Assembly: GCA_964420985.1 (NCBI GenBank)
Contig: CAYQUT010000002.1
Location: 47,546 to 111,545 of the forward strand
From: an uncultured Chryseobacterium sp.
Lineage (GTDB): Bacteria > Bacteroidota > Bacteroidia > Flavobacteriales_D > Sanyastnellaceae
Direction of reading: 5' to 3'
Length of the DNA: 64,000 nucleotides
Part shown: piece after piece, positions 9,564 through 52,495 of the stretch
Numbering within the stretch: position 1 is the first letter of the stretch
Layout of the letters: each line of letters begins with the position of its first letter
Program-made: the position numbers and the translations under genes
The notes under the pieces: generated by a model
Seen by the model: only the letters and a program-made list of their open reading frames with translations
Databases searched by the model: none
What the model was told of the DNA's origin: nothing

Positions 9564-10388
9564 TTATGCACCCAGTCCTACATCCAGCATCATCATCACT
9601 AGAAATCCTGCAATGAATCCAAGGGTGGCAATGTCTGTGTATTTGTCTTGTTGGGTTTCAGGAATAACTTCCTCTACCACAACATAAATCATGGCCCCCG
9701 CGGCAAAGGCCAAGGCATAGGGAAGAATGGGCAACATTTGCATCACGGCCAAGGCGCCAATCACACCCGCAATGGGTTCAACAATGGCAGAAAGTTGTCC
9801 ATAGAAAAAACTTTTTTTGCGGGATAAACCTAGCCGACGCAAGGGGAAAGAAACAGCAATACCTTCAGGGAAATTTTGAAGACCAATACCCACTGCCAGT
9901 GCTACTGCACCTCCGATGGTGGCCTCTGGAACACCAGCTGCAGCACCTCCGAATAAAACCCCTACCGCTAAGCCTTCTGGAATATTGTGCAAGGTGATGG
10001 CCAGCACCAAAAGGATGGTTCCTTGCAAGTTGGTTTTGACACCCTCTTTTTTCTCCTCTGGAAAATTCAAATGCAAATGGGGAAGCCATTTGTCCAATGA
10101 GAAGAGAAACAGCGCACCTGCAGCAAAACCAACAGCTGCTGGAATGGCTTTGACAAAACCTTCACCCGGGCTCATTTCTATGGCAGGATTTAATAACGAC
10201 CAAAAACTAGCCGCAATCATTACTCCCCCCGTAAATCCTAACATGCCATCAAGCCATCTGCGGTGCAGCGTTTTAAAAAGAAAAACAAGCGCGGCCCCCG
10301 CGGCAGTCACCAACCATGTAAAGCATGTTGCATAAAATGCCGCCCATACAGGATCAATAGAACTCAGATAATCGACAACCATTTTCAT
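9564..10388 (-). CDS. ZIP family divalent metal transporter (ZupT-like)
   Basis: 274-aa polytopic protein with paired ZIP motifs HNIPEGLAVG and QNFPEGIAVS. Confidence 0.85.
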   Translation of the reverse strand: MKMVVDYLSSIDPVWAAFYATCFTWLVTAAGAALVFLFKTLHRRWLDGMLGFTGGVMIAASFWSLLNPAIEMSPGEGFVKAIPAAVGFAAGALFLFSLDKWLPHLHLNFPEEKKEGVKTNLQGTILLVLAITLHNIPEGLAVGVLFGGAAAGVPEATIGGAVALAVGIGLQNFPEGIAVSFPLRRLGLSRKKSFFYGQLSAIVEPIAGVIGALAVMQMLPILPYALAFAAGAMIYVVVEEVIPETQQDKYTDIATLGFIAGFLVMMMLDVGLGA

Positions 10389-10392
10389 ATCT

Positions 10393-10400
10393 CAAAGTTA
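10393..10400 (-). promoter_or_regulatory. candidate -7 promoter box (TAACTTTG on the - strand) for the ZIP transporter gene
   Basis: The reverse complement of caaagtta is TAACTTTG (TAnnTTTG). Only 4 nt separate it from the ATG at 10388, implying a leaderless or near-leaderless mRNA. Confidence 0.35.
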
Positions 10401-10502
10401 ATCTTTATTGGATTGGTTGGAGATATTTATGTGATAGTGTGCGTTGAGAAAGATTAATTACGAACTCCAAATCATTGCAAATTTCCTACAAAAGTGAAAT
10501 GG

Positions 10503-10678
10503 TTCATCGGTAAATCAGTAAATCAGTAAATCGGTAGATCAGTGAATCGGTGGATTGGAAAATCAGTAGATCAGTAGATTAGTAGATCGGTAGATCGGTA
10601 GATCGGTAGATCGGTAGATTAGTGAATCGGTAAATTAGAGAATAAGTAGATCGGTGAATCAGTATATGGGTGGAATTG
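10503..10678 (+). repeat. tandem array of 22 units of an 8-bp repeat (consensus GTRRATCR / TRRATCRG)
   Basis: Parsed by hand: ttcatcgg taaatcag taaatcag taaatcgg tagatcag tgaatcgg tggattgg aaaatcag tagatcag tagattag tagatcgg x4 tagattag tgaatcgg taaattag agaataag tagatcgg tgaatcag tatatggg tggaattg. One unbroken 8-nt register. The array ends 10 nt before the stop codon of the four-helix-bundle ORF. Confidence 0.95.
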
Positions 10679-10688
10679 AATGGGGTAT

Positions 10689-11042
10689 TTAGTTTACAAC
10701 TTGACGAAATGCTGAAATTCTTCTGGATAAAATACCTGTTTCCTCTATGAGCTTGTCGATATCAAATGCTTGATCATTGAGTTCTTGGATGATTCTGAGT
10801 GTGGCTCTGGTTTCCATGCATGAGGCAAATGCAATGGTCAAAAAATGTTCTTTTTCTTTTTTGGTTTTTCTGGACATTCCCTCGGCTATATTCAGGGTAA
10901 CAGAAGTAATGGATCTTCTTATTTGCTGTATCAATGATGCGTCAGTCCACCTGCTCTTGCGAATATTTTTATAGATGAAAATACTAAGTCTCAAAGACTC
11001 TTTCCAAATTTCCAATTTTTCGTAACTTATGTTCTCTGTCAT
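10689..11042 (-). CDS. four-helix-bundle protein, 23S rRNA-intervening-sequence protein family (PF05635 / TIGR02436; Avd-related)
   Basis: MTENISYEKLEIWKESLRLSIFIYK...IQQIRRSITSVTLNIAEGMSRKTKKEKEHFLTIAFASCMETRATLRII matches the family hallmarks (E.W..s..l...iy; QlrRs..Si..NIAEG..r.s.ke...fl.iA.gS..E). I prefer the ATG at 11042 over the track's TTG at 11060. Confidence 0.85.
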   Translation of the reverse strand: MTENISYEKLEIWKESLRLSIFIYKNIRKSRWTDASLIQQIRRSITSVTLNIAEGMSRKTKKEKEHFLTIAFASCMETRATLRIIQELNDQAFDIDKLIEETGILSRRISAFRQVVN

Positions 11043-11110
11043 ATTGCAAAACACAAGCAAAAAGAGGAATATCGAAATAAATTAAAAATAGGAATATCAT
11101 ATAAGTTATG

Positions 11111-11438
11111 CCATACACCCATCCACCGATATGCTGATCTACTGATTAACCGATTTACTGATTCACTGATTTACCAATTCACCGATTCACTGATCTACTG
11201 ATTAACCGATTCACTGATCTACTGATTCACTGATTTACCAATCCACCGATATACTGATCTACTGATTAACCGATTCACTGATTTACCATTCCACTGATCC
11301 ACCGATATACCGATCCACCGATATACCGATCTACTGATTAACCGATTCACTGATTTACTGATCCACCGATCCACCGATATACCGATCTACTGATTAACCG
11401 ATTCACTGATTTACCAATCCACCGATATACTCATCCAC
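11111..11438 (-). repeat. tandem array of 41 units of the same 8-bp repeat, inverted relative to the 10503-10678 array
   Basis: On the + strand the units read YGATNNAC (ccatacac ccatccac cgatatgc tgatctac tgattaac cgatttac ... caatccac cgatatac tcatccac). The reverse complement is GTNNATCR, the same unit vocabulary as the left array. There are no indels over 328 bp, and a block of about 48 bp recurs. Confidence 0.95.
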
Positions 11439-11445
11439 CTTTCCT

Positions 11446-11453
11446 TATCTTTG
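11446..11453 (+). promoter_or_regulatory. candidate -7 promoter box (TATCTTTG) for aspS
   Basis: Exact TAnnTTTG match, 19 nt upstream of the aspS ATG and 7 nt after the last repeat unit. The -33 region lies inside the array (only TTTC is seen there). Confidence 0.4.
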
Positions 11454-11472
11454 TCCTTCAAATTTTTTCACC

Positions 11473-13221
11473 ATGCATCGTACACATACCTGCGGAGAGC
11501 TCCGCGCTGAACATATTGGTCAAACCGTCACCCTGAGCGGTTGGGTGCAACGCAGCCGCGACCTGGGTGGTATGACCTTCGTCGATCTTCGTGATCGTTA
11601 TGGCATAACTCAACTGGCTTTCAACATGGAAACCCATGAAGCACTCTGTTTAGAAGCCAGAAAATGGGGCCGCGAATTTGTCATAAAAGCCACCGGTATA
11701 GTCATCGAAAGACATTCGAAAAATGCGCAAATGCCTACGGGAGATATCGAAATTCAAGTCACTGATTTTACATTGCTCAATACCTCTAAAACCCCACCAT
11801 TTACAATAGAAGATGAAAGCGATGGCGGGGATGATTTGCGCATGCAATGGCGTTTCTTGGACTTACGCAGAAATCCTTTGAAAAACAACCTTATGCTCCG
11901 TCACCGCATGGGAATTGTAGCCAGAAACTTTTTGGATCAACAGGGATTCTTGGAAATTGAAACACCTTATTTGATCAAGTCTACCCCAGAAGGAGCGCGT
12001 GACTTCGTTGTTCCCAGCCGAATGAATCCTGGGCAATTTTATGCTCTTCCCCAATCTCCTCAAACGTTTAAACAGCTCTTGATGGTAAGCGGTTATGATC
12101 GCTATTATCAAATTGTGCGCTGCTTCCGTGATGAGGATTTGCGCGCTGATCGTCAACCGGAGTTTACCCAAATTGACTGTGAGATGGCTTTTGTTGAGCA
12201 ACAGGACATCCTCAATATGTTTGAAGACTTGGTCAAAACTTTGTTCCGTGATGTAAAAGGAATAGAATTGGAAAATGTTCCGCACATGACCTACGCCGAT
12301 GCCATGCAGTACTACGGTTCTGATAAGCCAGATGTGCGTTTTGATATGAAGTTCAACGACCTCTCTGCGCTGATGCAAAACAAAGGTTTCCAAGTTTTTG
12401 ATGCGGCACAATGCGTTTTGGGAATTGTAGCCAAAGGTGCAGGGAATTACACCCGCAAACAATTGGATGAATTGACTGAGTGGGTCAAGCGACCACAAAT
12501 TGGAGCAAAAGGTTTGGTTTATTGCTTGTGCCAACCAGAGGGTGCTTTTAAATCTTCCGTGGACAAATTTTACAACCAAGAGCAATGGAAAGAAATTGCT
12601 GCGCAAATGGGCGCTGTAGAAGGTGATTTGATTTTAATACTATCTGGCGATCTGCACGCCACCCGCAAGCAATTGGGTGAGCTGCGCTTGCACATGGGCA
12701 ATTTATTGGGGTTGAGAAATCCAAACGTATTTAAGCCTCTGTGGGTGGTGGACTTCCCATTGGTGGAATGGAATGAAGAAGCACAACGTTGGTTTGCCAT
12801 GCACCATCCGTTTACTTCACCTAAGCCAGAGCACATTGACTTATTGGACAACAATCCTGGATCTGTAAATGCCAACGCATATGATTTTGTCATCAACGGC
12901 GTCGAAGTAGGCGGTGGATCCATTCGTATCCACGATAGAAATGTTCAGGCCAGAATGTTTGATCTTTTGGGATTCACCCCAGAGGAGGCACAAGCTCAGT
13001 TTGGATTCTTGTTGAACGCCTTTGAATACGGAGCGCCGCCACACGGTGGAATCGCTTTCGGTTTTGACCGCTTGTGTTCATTGTTTGGTGGTTCCGACAG
13101 TATCCGTGATTTCATTGCCTTCCCTAAAAACAACAGCGGAAGAGATGTGATGATTGATGCTCCATCGGTCATCGATCAAAAACAATTGGATGAGCTTTCC
13201 ATTGATGTAAAGGCACAATGA
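11473..13221 (+). CDS. aspS: aspartate--tRNA ligase
   Basis: 582 aa. N-terminal OB-fold ([10 protein letters not shown]...VTLSGWV), class II motif 2 [26 protein letters not shown], and motif 3 GIAFGFDRL. Confidence 0.97.
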
Positions 13222-51271: not shown

Positions 51272-52495
51272 TTATTGGCCAGCGGCGTAATCTGAAAGGT
51301 ATTCAAAGGCCGGAGTCAGTATTCCCTCATTGGTTTCCGTTCCCCCTTGTATCATGGGATTGTTAGTATCGAGCAGTGCTGGAATAACATGTGTCATGAG
51401 TTCATTTCCAAAATCCTCTGATGCATCTCTGGGCAATTCACAAGGTAAGTTGTCAATGGACATTACCATCACGGCTTGTTCCTCTTGCCAGTTGCATTCT
51501 TTTTTCTCAATGGGACAAAAACCAAAAAACGGTTCTGCTATTGTACTGGCTTTTATTGTGGACGCTATTGGACCGTTAACATCACAGCTGATATCGGCAA
51601 TAACCTTGCATTGATTATTAGGTTCAGCTAAATCGTCCGCGGTAATCAAAAATGGATTTCCAGATTTCCAAAGATGACAGGCAAAATAGATATCAGACAA
51701 TTTTACCCAATCCATTAAAACACTTTTGTACAATTCAGGTGATTGATAAAACTCTTTTTTATCAAATCCGCCGTCTGATATACGTTGGTAATATTGATGG
51801 GTATCCAGGTGGGTGTAAATACTTTTTGTTCCTTGATAGGTTTTGAATTCTTCTGGAGAAACGAGCTGGAGATCAAATCGTTTGATCATCTCTTCAGCGC
51901 CATGACCAACGCGACCATAGCCAGTGACCACTGCCTTGATGGGTCTTTTGAATAAATCCGAATGAATATGCGATTCCATTTCAGTGCGATCATGACACGA
52001 AATAGGAGAAGGCAATTGAAACCAGTTGTATTTTAAACCCAAAGCCCTAAAGCCTTCAAACACCCCAACAATTCCCGCGTATCGACCAAAACCAATCACG
52101 CGCTTTCCTTGGCTGTCTTTTAATACTTCATAGTCAATCAACGTTATCTTCTTGTCCATAATTGCCTTAAGCAATTTGGCGTTATAAGGCTGCTTTTTTA
52201 TGGTGTGGGAGAAAAAAAGATAAGTTTTATTGGGAATCAATTGGTCAATTGGCACTTCTTTTACACCAATGAGGACATCGCAATCTGCAATGTTGTCTAC
52301 AACATTAACGCCAGCATCTGTGTATTCTTGATCCGTGAATTTGCGTATCGAACTCGATTGGGCTACAATGGAAACGGAAGGGAATGAGCCCTTAATTTGT
52401 TGACATTGAGAAGGAGTAAGAGCTACCCTAAAGTCAGGAGGAGTTTTCCCCTCTTTGATTAATCCAATTTTTAAATCTCTCATAAATGCTGTCAT
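51272..52495 (-). CDS. alanine-dehydrogenase/PNT-fold oxidoreductase, lysine-ketoglutarate reductase (saccharopine dehydrogenase, L-lysine-forming)-like
   Basis: IGLIKEGKTPPDFRVALTP, FFSHTIKKQPYNAKLL, LIDYE and VTGYGRVGHGA (NAD-binding) resemble the LKR domain family. Candidate starts are 52507, 52495 and 52483. I chose 52495 because it sits just after the hairpin. Confidence 0.6.
   Translation of the reverse strand: MTAFMRDLKIGLIKEGKTPPDFRVALTPSQCQQIKGSFPSVSIVAQSSSIRKFTDQEYTDAGVNVVDNIADCDVLIGVKEVPIDQLIPNKTYLFFSHTIKKQPYNAKLLKAIMDKKITLIDYEVLKDSQGKRVIGFGRYAGIVGVFEGFRALGLKYNWFQLPSPISCHDRTEMESHIHSDLFKRPIKAVVTGYGRVGHGAEEMIKRFDLQLVSPEEFKTYQGTKSIYTHLDTHQYYQRISDGGFDKKEFYQSPELYKSVLMDWVKLSDIYFACHLWKSGNPFLITADDLAEPNNQCKVIADISCDVNGPIASTIKASTIAEPFFGFCPIEKKECNWQEEQAVMVMSIDNLPCELPRDASEDFGNELMTHVIPALLDTNNPMIQGGTETNEGILTPAFEYLSDYAAGQ

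Follow-up and report, generated by a model that had tools for sequence, protein, structure and literature searches.

Inverted octamer arrays around a PF05635 four-helix-bundle gene as the probable arms of a foldback cassette

The window, a stretch of 64,000 nucleotides, contains two tandem arrays of an 8-nt unit that bracket a gene of the PF05635 four-helix-bundle (4HB) family. Probably, the pair of arrays forms the inverted arms of a foldback cassette that is built around the 4HB gene in the manner of an intervening sequence (IVS) and changes by whole units. The arms belong to a lineage-restricted octamer family with the core xGATxxAC. The arrays outlive the gene, the sites of the cassette differ between species, and the core of the cassette is found in either orientation. 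Within a single genus, we describe the octamer grammar of the whole family, its alleles among strains, and comparisons of filled, empty, flipped, and decayed sites, all of which are new here.

Results

Anatomy of the cassette

In gene orientation, the cassette consists of 41 GTNNATCR units, a spacer, the open reading frame (ORF), and 22 YGATNNAC units (Table 1). The encoded protein scores 81.8 bits against the TIGR02436 profile HMM (cut-off 24) and 78.3 bits against PF05635 (cut-off 33.8). A profile of 12 proteins of the genus matches PDB 2GSC (XCC0516) at E = 2.6e-16 and PDB 2RLD at E = 7.5e-07. Both entries are solved pentameric four-helix-bundle structures and are homologous to the 117-aa protein. 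An earlier note on this DNA had assigned the arrays to the gene that they enclose. In accordance, the inverted arms bracket the gene, and the layout is repeated at other loci of the family.

Table 1 Coordinates of the cassette and its flanking genes in the window
Feature	Position	Strand	Description
ZIP metal transporter gene	9564-10388	-	Flanks the cassette
3' arm	10502..10677	-	22 in-register octamers; YGATNNAC in gene orientation; starts ~11 nt past the stop codon
4HB gene	10689..11042	-	117 aa from ATG, pI 9.6; TIGR02436 / PF05635 (23S rRNA intervening-sequence protein family)
Spacer, 5' arm to ATG	11043..11110	-	68 nt; conserved in orthologous cassettes of two other species
TTTG box	11047-11050, within GTGTTTTG at 11047-11054	-	4 nt upstream of ATG; candidate internal promoter
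5' (promoter-side) arm	11111..11438	.	41 octamers; YGATNNAC on +, GTNNATCR in gene orientation
TATCTTTG	11446..11453	+	Matches the Bacteroidota -7 box (TAnnTTTG); putative promoter element of aspS, assigned by consensus
aspS	11473-13221	+	Flanks the cassette

Orthologous cassettes, designated clade A, encode proteins that are 73-85% identical and have the same arm unit, the same arm orientation, and a conserved spacer. The TTTG box 4 nt 5' of the ATG is kept in all three of them, and a near-leaderless 4HB mRNA may start from this candidate promoter. Because the box is so close to the ATG, the mRNA of the gene itself may exclude the 5' arm, in which case a hairpin would have to form at the DNA level or in read-through transcripts. 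On the other side of the 5' arm, the putative -7 box of aspS follows the final repeat unit at a distance of 8 nt, which would place the -33 region of this promoter inside the array.

The sense RNA of the cassette is predicted to fold with a minimum free energy of -325 kcal/mol (z = -12.8) and stem arms of ~180 nt, values that describe folding potential only. The outer 20 units of the 5' arm can pair with the 3' arm. The complementarity of the arms exists only at the consensus level (~70-78%). When the unit order of the 3' arm was compared with that of the 5' arm in a mirror-copy test, no offset exceeded chance (best identity 78%, reached by 225 of 2000 shuffles). Each arm evolves on its own, and what complementarity there is comes from the core that both share. 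Hairpin-templated homogenisation of the arms is accordingly unsupported, as the dinucleotide order in one arm is not mirrored in the other. In the consensus units of 21 loci, no clear G·U bias for sense-RNA pairing is seen by eye.

Other known classes of element do not fit. At E <= 1, Rfam gives no structured-RNA family over positions 10300-11600, where the sole match is a chance match of 16.8 bits to the trypanosomatid mitochondrial LSU rRNA model (gathering score 60 bits). PADLOC gives no anti-phage defence family at E <= 0.01. A CRISPR array is ruled out, since the units are contiguous and have no spacers.

Unit, register, and composition of the arrays

The 41 octamers of the 5' arm are contiguous and share a single register with zero indels and the consensus Y-G-A-T-N-N-A-C. 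The 3' arm is also free of indels, and 19 of its 22 octamers match the strict pattern. These counts and the consensus reproduce the single, indel-free register that the earlier note had described for both arms. In the 5' arm, no unit departs from the consensus at positions 4 and 8, and a single unit does so at each of positions 3 and 7. G fills position 2 in 34 of 41 units, and position 1 takes either pyrimidine (C or T); nearly all variation sits in positions 5 and 6. The near-invariant core and variable dinucleotide proposed before are borne out by the information content of this arm, which is high in the core and low at positions 5 and 6 (2.0 bits at positions 4 and 8, 1.83 at 3 and 7, 1.17 at 2, 1.0 at 1, and 0.5-0.6 at 5 and 6), and the 8-nt period is borne out by the base autocorrelation of the arrays (0.71 at lag 8 versus ~0.2 off phase). 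Units with core changes are tolerated (8/41 and 7/21). The only ORF within the arrays is a chance frame of 51 codons, and the arrays are indeed non-coding, as had been claimed.

Tandem Repeats Finder reports period 8 for the 3' arm and higher-order periods of 56 and 72 bp. Self-identity at the level of units peaks at a lag of 7 units (0.26, matched by 1 of 5000 shuffles). The values at lags 8 and 9 (0.18 and 0.16) are above those at other lags, with lag 9 equalled by 227 of 5000 shuffles. The higher-order period of the array is thus 7-9 units (56-72 bp). The ~48-bp period suggested earlier has to be given up, since self-identity at the corresponding lag of 6 units is at background (0.06). The block AT-CT-TA-TC-TT-CC(-CC) that accompanied this suggestion does recur four to five times, but its spacing is variable.

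A recount of GATC gives 10 + 7 = 17 sites in 504 bp of arrays, where ~1.8 are expected from the composition of the arrays, in agreement with the excess of 17 over about 2 already noted. The excess arises because GAT is part of the core and C occupies the variable position 5 in ~40% of units. It is a by-product of the unit. Genome-wide, GATC is ordinary (3.1 per kb versus 3.7 expected).

Length alleles among strains and species

By exact look-up of the AspRS protein, we retrieved the same cassette from independent metagenome assemblies of the same species. The 5' arm has 41 units in the window and in four assemblies, 32 units in two assemblies, and 45 units in one assembly. In five further assemblies, contigs end inside this arm, and unit counts from short reads may include assembly error. 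The 32-unit allele is explained by the clean loss of one 9-unit block, and the 45-unit allele departs from the 41-unit form in its gene-proximal units and in an internal block. All length differences of the 5' arm are multiples of 8. The 3' arm varies among strains by one SNP and not in length.

The alleles of the 5' arm are linked to 8-9 SNPs in the unique flanks. The 32- and 45-unit alleles have eight SNPs in common in the unique DNA between the ZIP gene and the 3' arm, indicating that they are real haplotypes and not collapsed 41-unit copies. Within this haplotype, the array changed by 13 units and the flank by one SNP. The promoter-proximal units of the 5' arm are the same in all alleles, and the changes lie farther inside or at the far end.

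Short forms of the array occur at the aspS junction of two congeners. For convenience, the genome of the window is designated G000 and the congeners compared are designated G001-G012. G001 and G012 carry 3 and 4 units, respectively, at an identical junction (..AC followed by CTTTCCTTATCTTTG), with no 4HB gene there; the other congeners have hexamer arrays or degenerate repeats at this junction. Given these junctions and the whole-unit and block-wise differences between the alleles, the phase and the higher-order blocks are footprints of duplication and deletion.

A strict phase with patterned dinucleotides had been taken to imply a selected register. The 32-, 41-, and 45-unit alleles, which differ by whole units and blocks, make such selection unnecessary. 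What calls for explanation is the conserved core of five positions in eight; phase, blocks, and GATC need no selection.

The octamer family in the genome and the genus

Taking at least four consecutive YGATNNAC units as a family array, we find 17 arrays at ~10 loci in the genome. About nine of the loci are outside the cassette of the window, and most of these have no gene. Eight contig ends of the genome fall within or beside the arrays. The 240 units outside the cassette show the same division as those within it into conserved positions (2, 3, 4, 7, and 8, with 1.3-1.9 bits) and variable ones (1, 5, and 6, with 0.4-0.7 bits). Positions 5 and 6 almost lack G, and the subset of variable dinucleotides differs from array to array. 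Therefore, the grammar is a property of the repeat family and not of one locus.

The repeat family is present in 5 of 13 other species of the genus, and none of the 27 genomes examined from other genera of the same taxonomic family and order has it. The recurrence of five conserved and three variable positions in the 240 outside units and in the five other species upholds the earlier view that the arrays exceed random slippage debris. In a sample of 400 genomes of the phylum, we find only short, homogeneous CGATRAAC arrays, and no 4HB gene lies within 1.2 kb of them in the seven genomes concerned, which belong to a distant family.

In addition, the clades of the 4HB protein track the families of units. 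The three clade-A proteins share GTNNATCR/YGATNNAC arms in the same orientation to the gene, and other clades in the genus carry other repeat units.

Inverted arrays around the gene family elsewhere

All four TIGR02436 genes of the genome are flanked by short repeats, with a unit of its own at each locus, and three of the four are bracketed by inverted arrays of 7- or 8-nt units. One locus, with TACTGAG-type heptamers, adjoins the 3' end of the tmRNA gene, and another is bracketed by GGGAAAC/CCCCTTT heptamers. A truncated copy of this last gene, at a contig end, makes up the fourth and has only short upstream repeats. Across the genus, arrays of 6-8-nt units flank at least 14 of 18 TIGR02436 genes.

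The four genes and the 450 bp around each make up ~0.1% of the genome and contain 7 of its 46 arrays of period 6-9, an enrichment of more than 100-fold beside 4HB genes. Periods 7 and 8 together account for 35 of the 56 tandem arrays of at least 4.5 copies in the genome, where heptamer families coexist with the octamers.

To cover more distant relatives, one genome per species (185,579 species) was scanned with the profile of the genus proteins, and the best 80 loci were taken. These are the top matches to the proteins of the genus, not a random sample of the family, and they are spread over Chloroflexota, Patescibacteria, Acidobacteriota, Proteobacteria, Firmicutes, Planctomycetota, Actinomycetota, and Bacteroidota. 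In 52 of the 80, the gene has an array of 3.5 or more copies within ~400 bp. Among the 87 arrays at these loci, 67 have period 7 and 10 have period 8. Arrays of the same period are present on both sides of the gene at 21 loci, and the 3' unit is nearer to the reverse complement of the 5' unit at 18 of them, nearer to the direct unit at one, and tied at two.

Sites, inversion, and decay across species

The cassette occupies different sites in different species. In G000, it lies between the ZIP gene and aspS. In G001, it directly follows a gene for a small secreted protein; in G012, it lies between this gene and a convergent response-regulator gene; and in G011, it lies beside the response-regulator gene, after an extra gene of 211 aa. 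The secreted-protein and response-regulator genes are only 6 bp apart in G000, and the region aligns without interruption in G002, G004, G005, G008, and G009; it has contig breaks in G003 and G007. By flank identity, G000 is nearer to array-free species (including G002, G004, and G005) than to G001, G011, and G012. The distribution is therefore patchy, which suggests either horizontal spread or repeated loss.

In G001 and G012, the arm at the secreted-protein gene begins with the same units, and the spacer-plus-ORF core is reversed. Such an inversion of the core would be the product expected of recombination between inverted arms. Two independent insertions behind opposite cores in G001 and G012 are a possible alternative.

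Decay of the gene is seen as well. The clade-A gene of G012 has lost ~180 bp inside the ORF, with both arms kept, and many arrays are present in this genome. G003 has arrays, and no clade-A gene was found there.

Contig C6 of G000 carries a foldback without a gene, in which ~18 units, a loop of 28-30 nt, and then 56 units follow one another. The orthologue in G012 has a recognisably conserved loop and arms of 12 and 3 units, and at this site in G012 a secreted-protein gene of 1.5 kb lies between two direct arrays. At the C6 site, the contigs of G001 and G011 break off, G006 has a mini-hairpin of one unit, and G003, G004, G005, and G008 have a 43-bp hairpin resembling an intrinsic terminator. 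The stem of this 43-bp hairpin resembles half-units of another octamer family of the genus. Precise excision of a cassette was considered as the origin of the C6 foldback and rejected, since the loop has its orthologue in the loop that G012 carries at this locus; local alignment of the loop (30 bp) to the inner junctions of the cassette gives a weak match.

From the filled, empty, and different sites across species, we infer that the cassette has moved. At the cassettes and compared sites, we find no recombinase, no target-site duplication, and no direct excision or insertion event, and there is no enzyme gene within or beside the cassettes. Comparison of filled with empty junctions shows no evident duplication, and the junction sequences have diverged.

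Discussion

Origin and maintenance of the arrays

We propose that replication slippage, together with unequal or ectopic homologous recombination between arrays, drives the changes of the foldback cassette. These processes would yield the 8-nt phase, the 56-72-bp blocks, the inversion of the core, and the breaks in assemblies. Relocation would be to sites that already hold a few units, and the aspS site in relatives would offer such homology. The arms would act as a long hairpin, either a DNA cruciform or an RNA stem, as the stems of IVS do, and not as a positional code. However, slippage and recombination alone do not account for the restriction of variation to positions 1, 5, and 6. The variation at positions 1 and 2 (CGAT to TGAT or CAAT) in part looks like transitions at the CG step. 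It may be that only units keeping G-A-T..A-C were propagated. Recognition by a protein would be the most likely reason, and the obvious candidate for the recogniser of the core is the basic 4HB protein of the cassette itself.

Tentatively, this may be taken one step further, to a proposal that we think rather unlikely as it stands. Each PF05635 4HB protein would recognise the core of its own unit, in DNA or RNA, and protein and arms together would be a self-contained element that seeds, maintains, and relocates arrays. If so, the arrays without a gene would be footprints or trans-acting sites of a PF05635 element, and the intervening sequences of rRNA and the excess of 7-8-nt tandem repeats in bacterial intergenic DNA would have a common cause.

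A different account of the conserved core is that the arrays offer the encoded basic 4HB protein phased sites for multimeric binding, with selection for binding keeping both core and register and with a cognate unit for each clade. Five of eight positions are conserved in the 41 + 22 + 240 units at ~10 loci, as well as in five other species, and G is almost excluded at positions 5 and 6. The protein is basic (pI 9.6), and its solved relatives form a pentameric ring. The tracking of unit families by protein clades is also consistent with this account, but it is equally expected from simple co-inheritance within cassettes. Several observations are harder to reconcile with selection for binding. 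Arrays persist beside the internally deleted gene of G012, at loci without a gene, and in G003, and core-changed units are tolerated in both arms. The literature searched gives no binding data for any member of the family outside diversity-generating retroelements (DGR). The CGATRAAC arrays of the distant family, with no 4HB gene within 1.2 kb, are compatible with cognate pairing but are no evidence for it. On balance, we regard phased binding sites as a doubtful explanation, although one to be taken seriously.

It is considerably less likely that the arrays are neutral slippage repeats, devoid of function and placed beside the gene only by chance or by a shared preference for intergenic DNA. 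Their length varies freely among strains and species (3, 4, 32, 41, and 45 units), the closest relatives by flank identity (G002, G004, and G005) entirely lack YGATNNAC arrays, and slippage has been invoked to explain why heptamer repeats are in excess in bacteria (cited in PMC4692102). However, chance placement would not account for the more than 100-fold enrichment of period 6-9 arrays beside the 4HB genes of this genome or for the reverse-complementary arrangement of two-sided arrays at 18 of 21 loci of relatives. Nor would neutral slippage account for a unit grammar common to ~10 unlinked loci, for the share of periods 7 and 8 among the tandem arrays of the genome (35 of 56), or for variation that is restricted to certain positions and not uniform.

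Least likely is a regulatory or epigenetic array. It would be a cluster of GATC (Dam-type) methylation sites, or else a spacer whose phase-variable unit number adjusts the two divergent promoters, of aspS and of the 4HB gene. In favour of this, the array stops 8 nt short of the putative aspS -7 box and would supply the -33 region, it varies in unit number among strains, and its 17 GATC sites coexist with one D12-class adenine methyltransferase encoded in the genome, but the promoter-proximal units are identical across alleles, GATC occurs in only ~40% of units and at an ordinary frequency genome-wide, other loci use GATC-free units (AT, TT, and AC types), and the same arrays also lie at terminator-like positions away from promoters.

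Taken as a whole, the earlier note was right that the arrays are non-coding, linked to the gene, and constrained in their core. It over-read the phase, the block pattern, and GATC, for which unit-wise expansion of the arms of the foldback cassette suffices.

Dispersed repeats of 7-8 nt and S23p/PF05635 genes have each gone unexplained for decades and are treated separately in the papers examined. The locus described here presents the two as one object. A single lineage offers side by side filled, empty, and decayed sites, both orientations of the core, and three strain alleles. In addition, ~10 arrays of the same unit are served by a single intact gene, which makes recognition of the repeat by the protein directly testable. 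There are also practical consequences, as the arrays break short-read assemblies, with eight contig ends of this genome in or beside them, and hypervariable DNA is set directly against the promoter of aspS, an essential gene.

Comparison with known systems

The ORF-bearing IVS in the 23S rRNA of Coxiella burnetii and Leptospira likewise have a PF05635 gene in the loop of an inverted-repeat stem. In Coxiella, RNase III cuts the 28-bp terminal stem of the stem-loop that contains the S23p ORF, and the number of tandem GACAGAT heptamers upstream of this ORF differs from strain to strain (PMC4990558). ORF-bearing IVS of 23S rRNA have been proposed to be selfish or mobile (PMC4990558). The cassette shares with them inverted repeats that could form a long stem around a PF05635 gene. 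However, it lies between protein genes (ZIP and aspS) and not in an rRNA helix, and positions 10300-11600 contain no credible rRNA match. Its arms are tandem arrays of 176 and 328 bp with an 8-nt unit, compared with the 28-bp stem in Coxiella, and its probable internal promoter may leave the 5' arm out of the mRNA.

A second relative of the encoded protein is Avd of DGR, a nucleic-acid-binding member of the PF05635 family. Avd and the cassette protein are both small, basic four-helix bundles. In contrast to DGR, the cassette has no template or variable repeats. A role like that of Avd in a DGR is excluded, as the whole genome (99.9% complete) has no match to reverse transcriptase (PF00078). 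The literature treats the PF05635 family as uncharacterised, including where it occurs in cas loci and in rRNA insertions of CPR.

Foldback and MITE-like palindromic elements, including the foldback elements of eukaryotes, resemble the cassette in form. They have long inverted termini made of tandem short repeats, occur as dispersed copies with or without an ORF, and undergo inversion and rearrangement at the arms. For the cassette, no transposase or target-site duplication was found, and the sole protein that it encodes is a helical bundle of 117 aa.

The arrays also resemble the STRR heptamers and the GGGAATC and TAACTGA families, which are likewise intergenic, present at multiple loci, lineage-specific, variable in length between close relatives, and often arranged as inverted pairs. 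STRR lengthen a helix in cyanobacterial RNase P RNA, and Vioque reportedly described STRR inside the RNase P RNA gene of cyanobacteria in 1997. GGGAATC arrays form 70 convergent pairs in Xanthomonas campestris, with 'a potential functional role ... still to be elucidated' (PMC4692102). TAACTGA arrays are found in Beggiatoaceae, Cyanobacteria, and five Bacteroidetes, with 'no mechanism evident' (PMC4679880). These two repeat papers (PMC4692102, PMC4679880) make no mention of PF05635. In the cassette, by contrast, the link to PF05635 is direct, and arrays of the same octamer without a gene coexist with the gene-bearing cassette. It shares the dispersed arrays of STRR-type repeats, but its unit has 8 nt, with three degenerate positions, and is not a heptamer. 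As the cassette is neither in rRNA nor built of heptamers, we file it as a new variant, a member of neither the IVS nor the STRR. It is an octamer-based, intergenic variant that works like both.

Repeat families and 4HB cassettes

In the whole genome of the window (G000), tandem arrays with at least 4.5 copies have mostly a period of 7 (14 arrays) or 8 (21 arrays), and all other periods are far rarer. The period-7 and period-8 arrays sort into approximately four families of units: YGATNNAC, CCTCATCC/GGGATGAA, purine-rich GGGAAAC/AAGAGGA, and TACTGAG/TCAGTAT. In one array, the CTCTCTT unit reaches 52 copies.

The window's cassette, a gene for a four-helix-bundle (4HB) protein between inverted YGATNNAC arms, is wedged between two divergent promoters, those of aspS and the ZIP gene. 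A second 4HB cassette of G000 has TACTGAG-type heptamer arms and is located on contig C18, which begins within its outer arm. This cassette ends at a distance of 5 nt from the tmRNA gene's 3' end, a classic integration site of mobile elements.

Decayed copies are also present. In another species of the genus (G012), ~180 bp are deleted inside the orthologous (clade-A) 4HB gene, and the start is fused to the C-terminal part, with the spacer and both arms intact. A truncated 4HB copy lies at the end of G000 contig C12 (L004).

Features and their coordinates
Feature	Location	Strand	Remark
Predicted aspS -7 box	window 11446-11453		8 nt from last repeat unit
ZIP gene -7 box	window 10393-10400		~100 nt from the cassette's other arm
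Region with TACTGAG-type cassette	L002:1-1039		G000 C18
tmRNA gene	L002:639-1039	-	Rfam RF00023, 111.9 bits
CTCTCTT array	C14:61225-61586		G000
4HB gene with internal deletion	L170:740-990		G012 C64
Octamer foldback, 640 bp	C6:35689-36324		G000
GC-rich element	L057:1335-1425		G001, upstream of aspS
GC-rich element	L058
GC-rich element, two copies	C21:51985-52082 and 52189-52286		G000
Region with 1.5-kb secreted-protein gene	L178:100-2000 (C75:49350-51250)		G012; flanked by two direct GTNNATCR arrays

Possible origin and growth of the arrays

In four other species of the genus (G004, G005, G003 and G008; L172-L175), the site orthologous to the 640-bp octamer foldback of G000 is occupied by a 43-bp hairpin that resembles an intrinsic terminator and is followed by a T-run. 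Its stem, which reads GGGATGAATGAG / CTCATTTTTCCC on the transcribed strand, is reminiscent of half-units from the other octamer family of the genus. The presence of such a stem at the orthologous site suggests that ordinary terminator stems grow into long foldbacks.

A GC-rich element, ~98 bp long and containing two hairpins (CCCCTCC..GGAGGGG and TCCCGAC..GTCGGGA), directly abuts octamer arrays and alternates with them, and contig C3 has a partial copy flanked by two other arrays. Since its terminal bases (..GAGATTTMC) are similar to a repeat unit, octamer arrays may start from the end of this element.

In G012, a gene for a secreted protein, preceded by a TTTTGGG array of seven copies, is found inside a foldback whose G000 counterpart has no gene. 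The arrangement resembles the capture of a gene, or its insertion, inside a repeat arm.

GAC in heptamers of unrelated phyla

Among the 80 loci that best match the 4HB profile of the genus (L084-L163), GAC recurs in many heptamers of the 5' arms across unrelated phyla, including GACCGCC, GACGGAC, GACGATG, GACTACC, CAGACAA, and TGAGACG. GAC is present in ~15 of 27 units, compared with ~11% expected (counted by eye and uncorrected for relatedness). The Coxiella heptamer, GACAGAT, likewise carries GAC.
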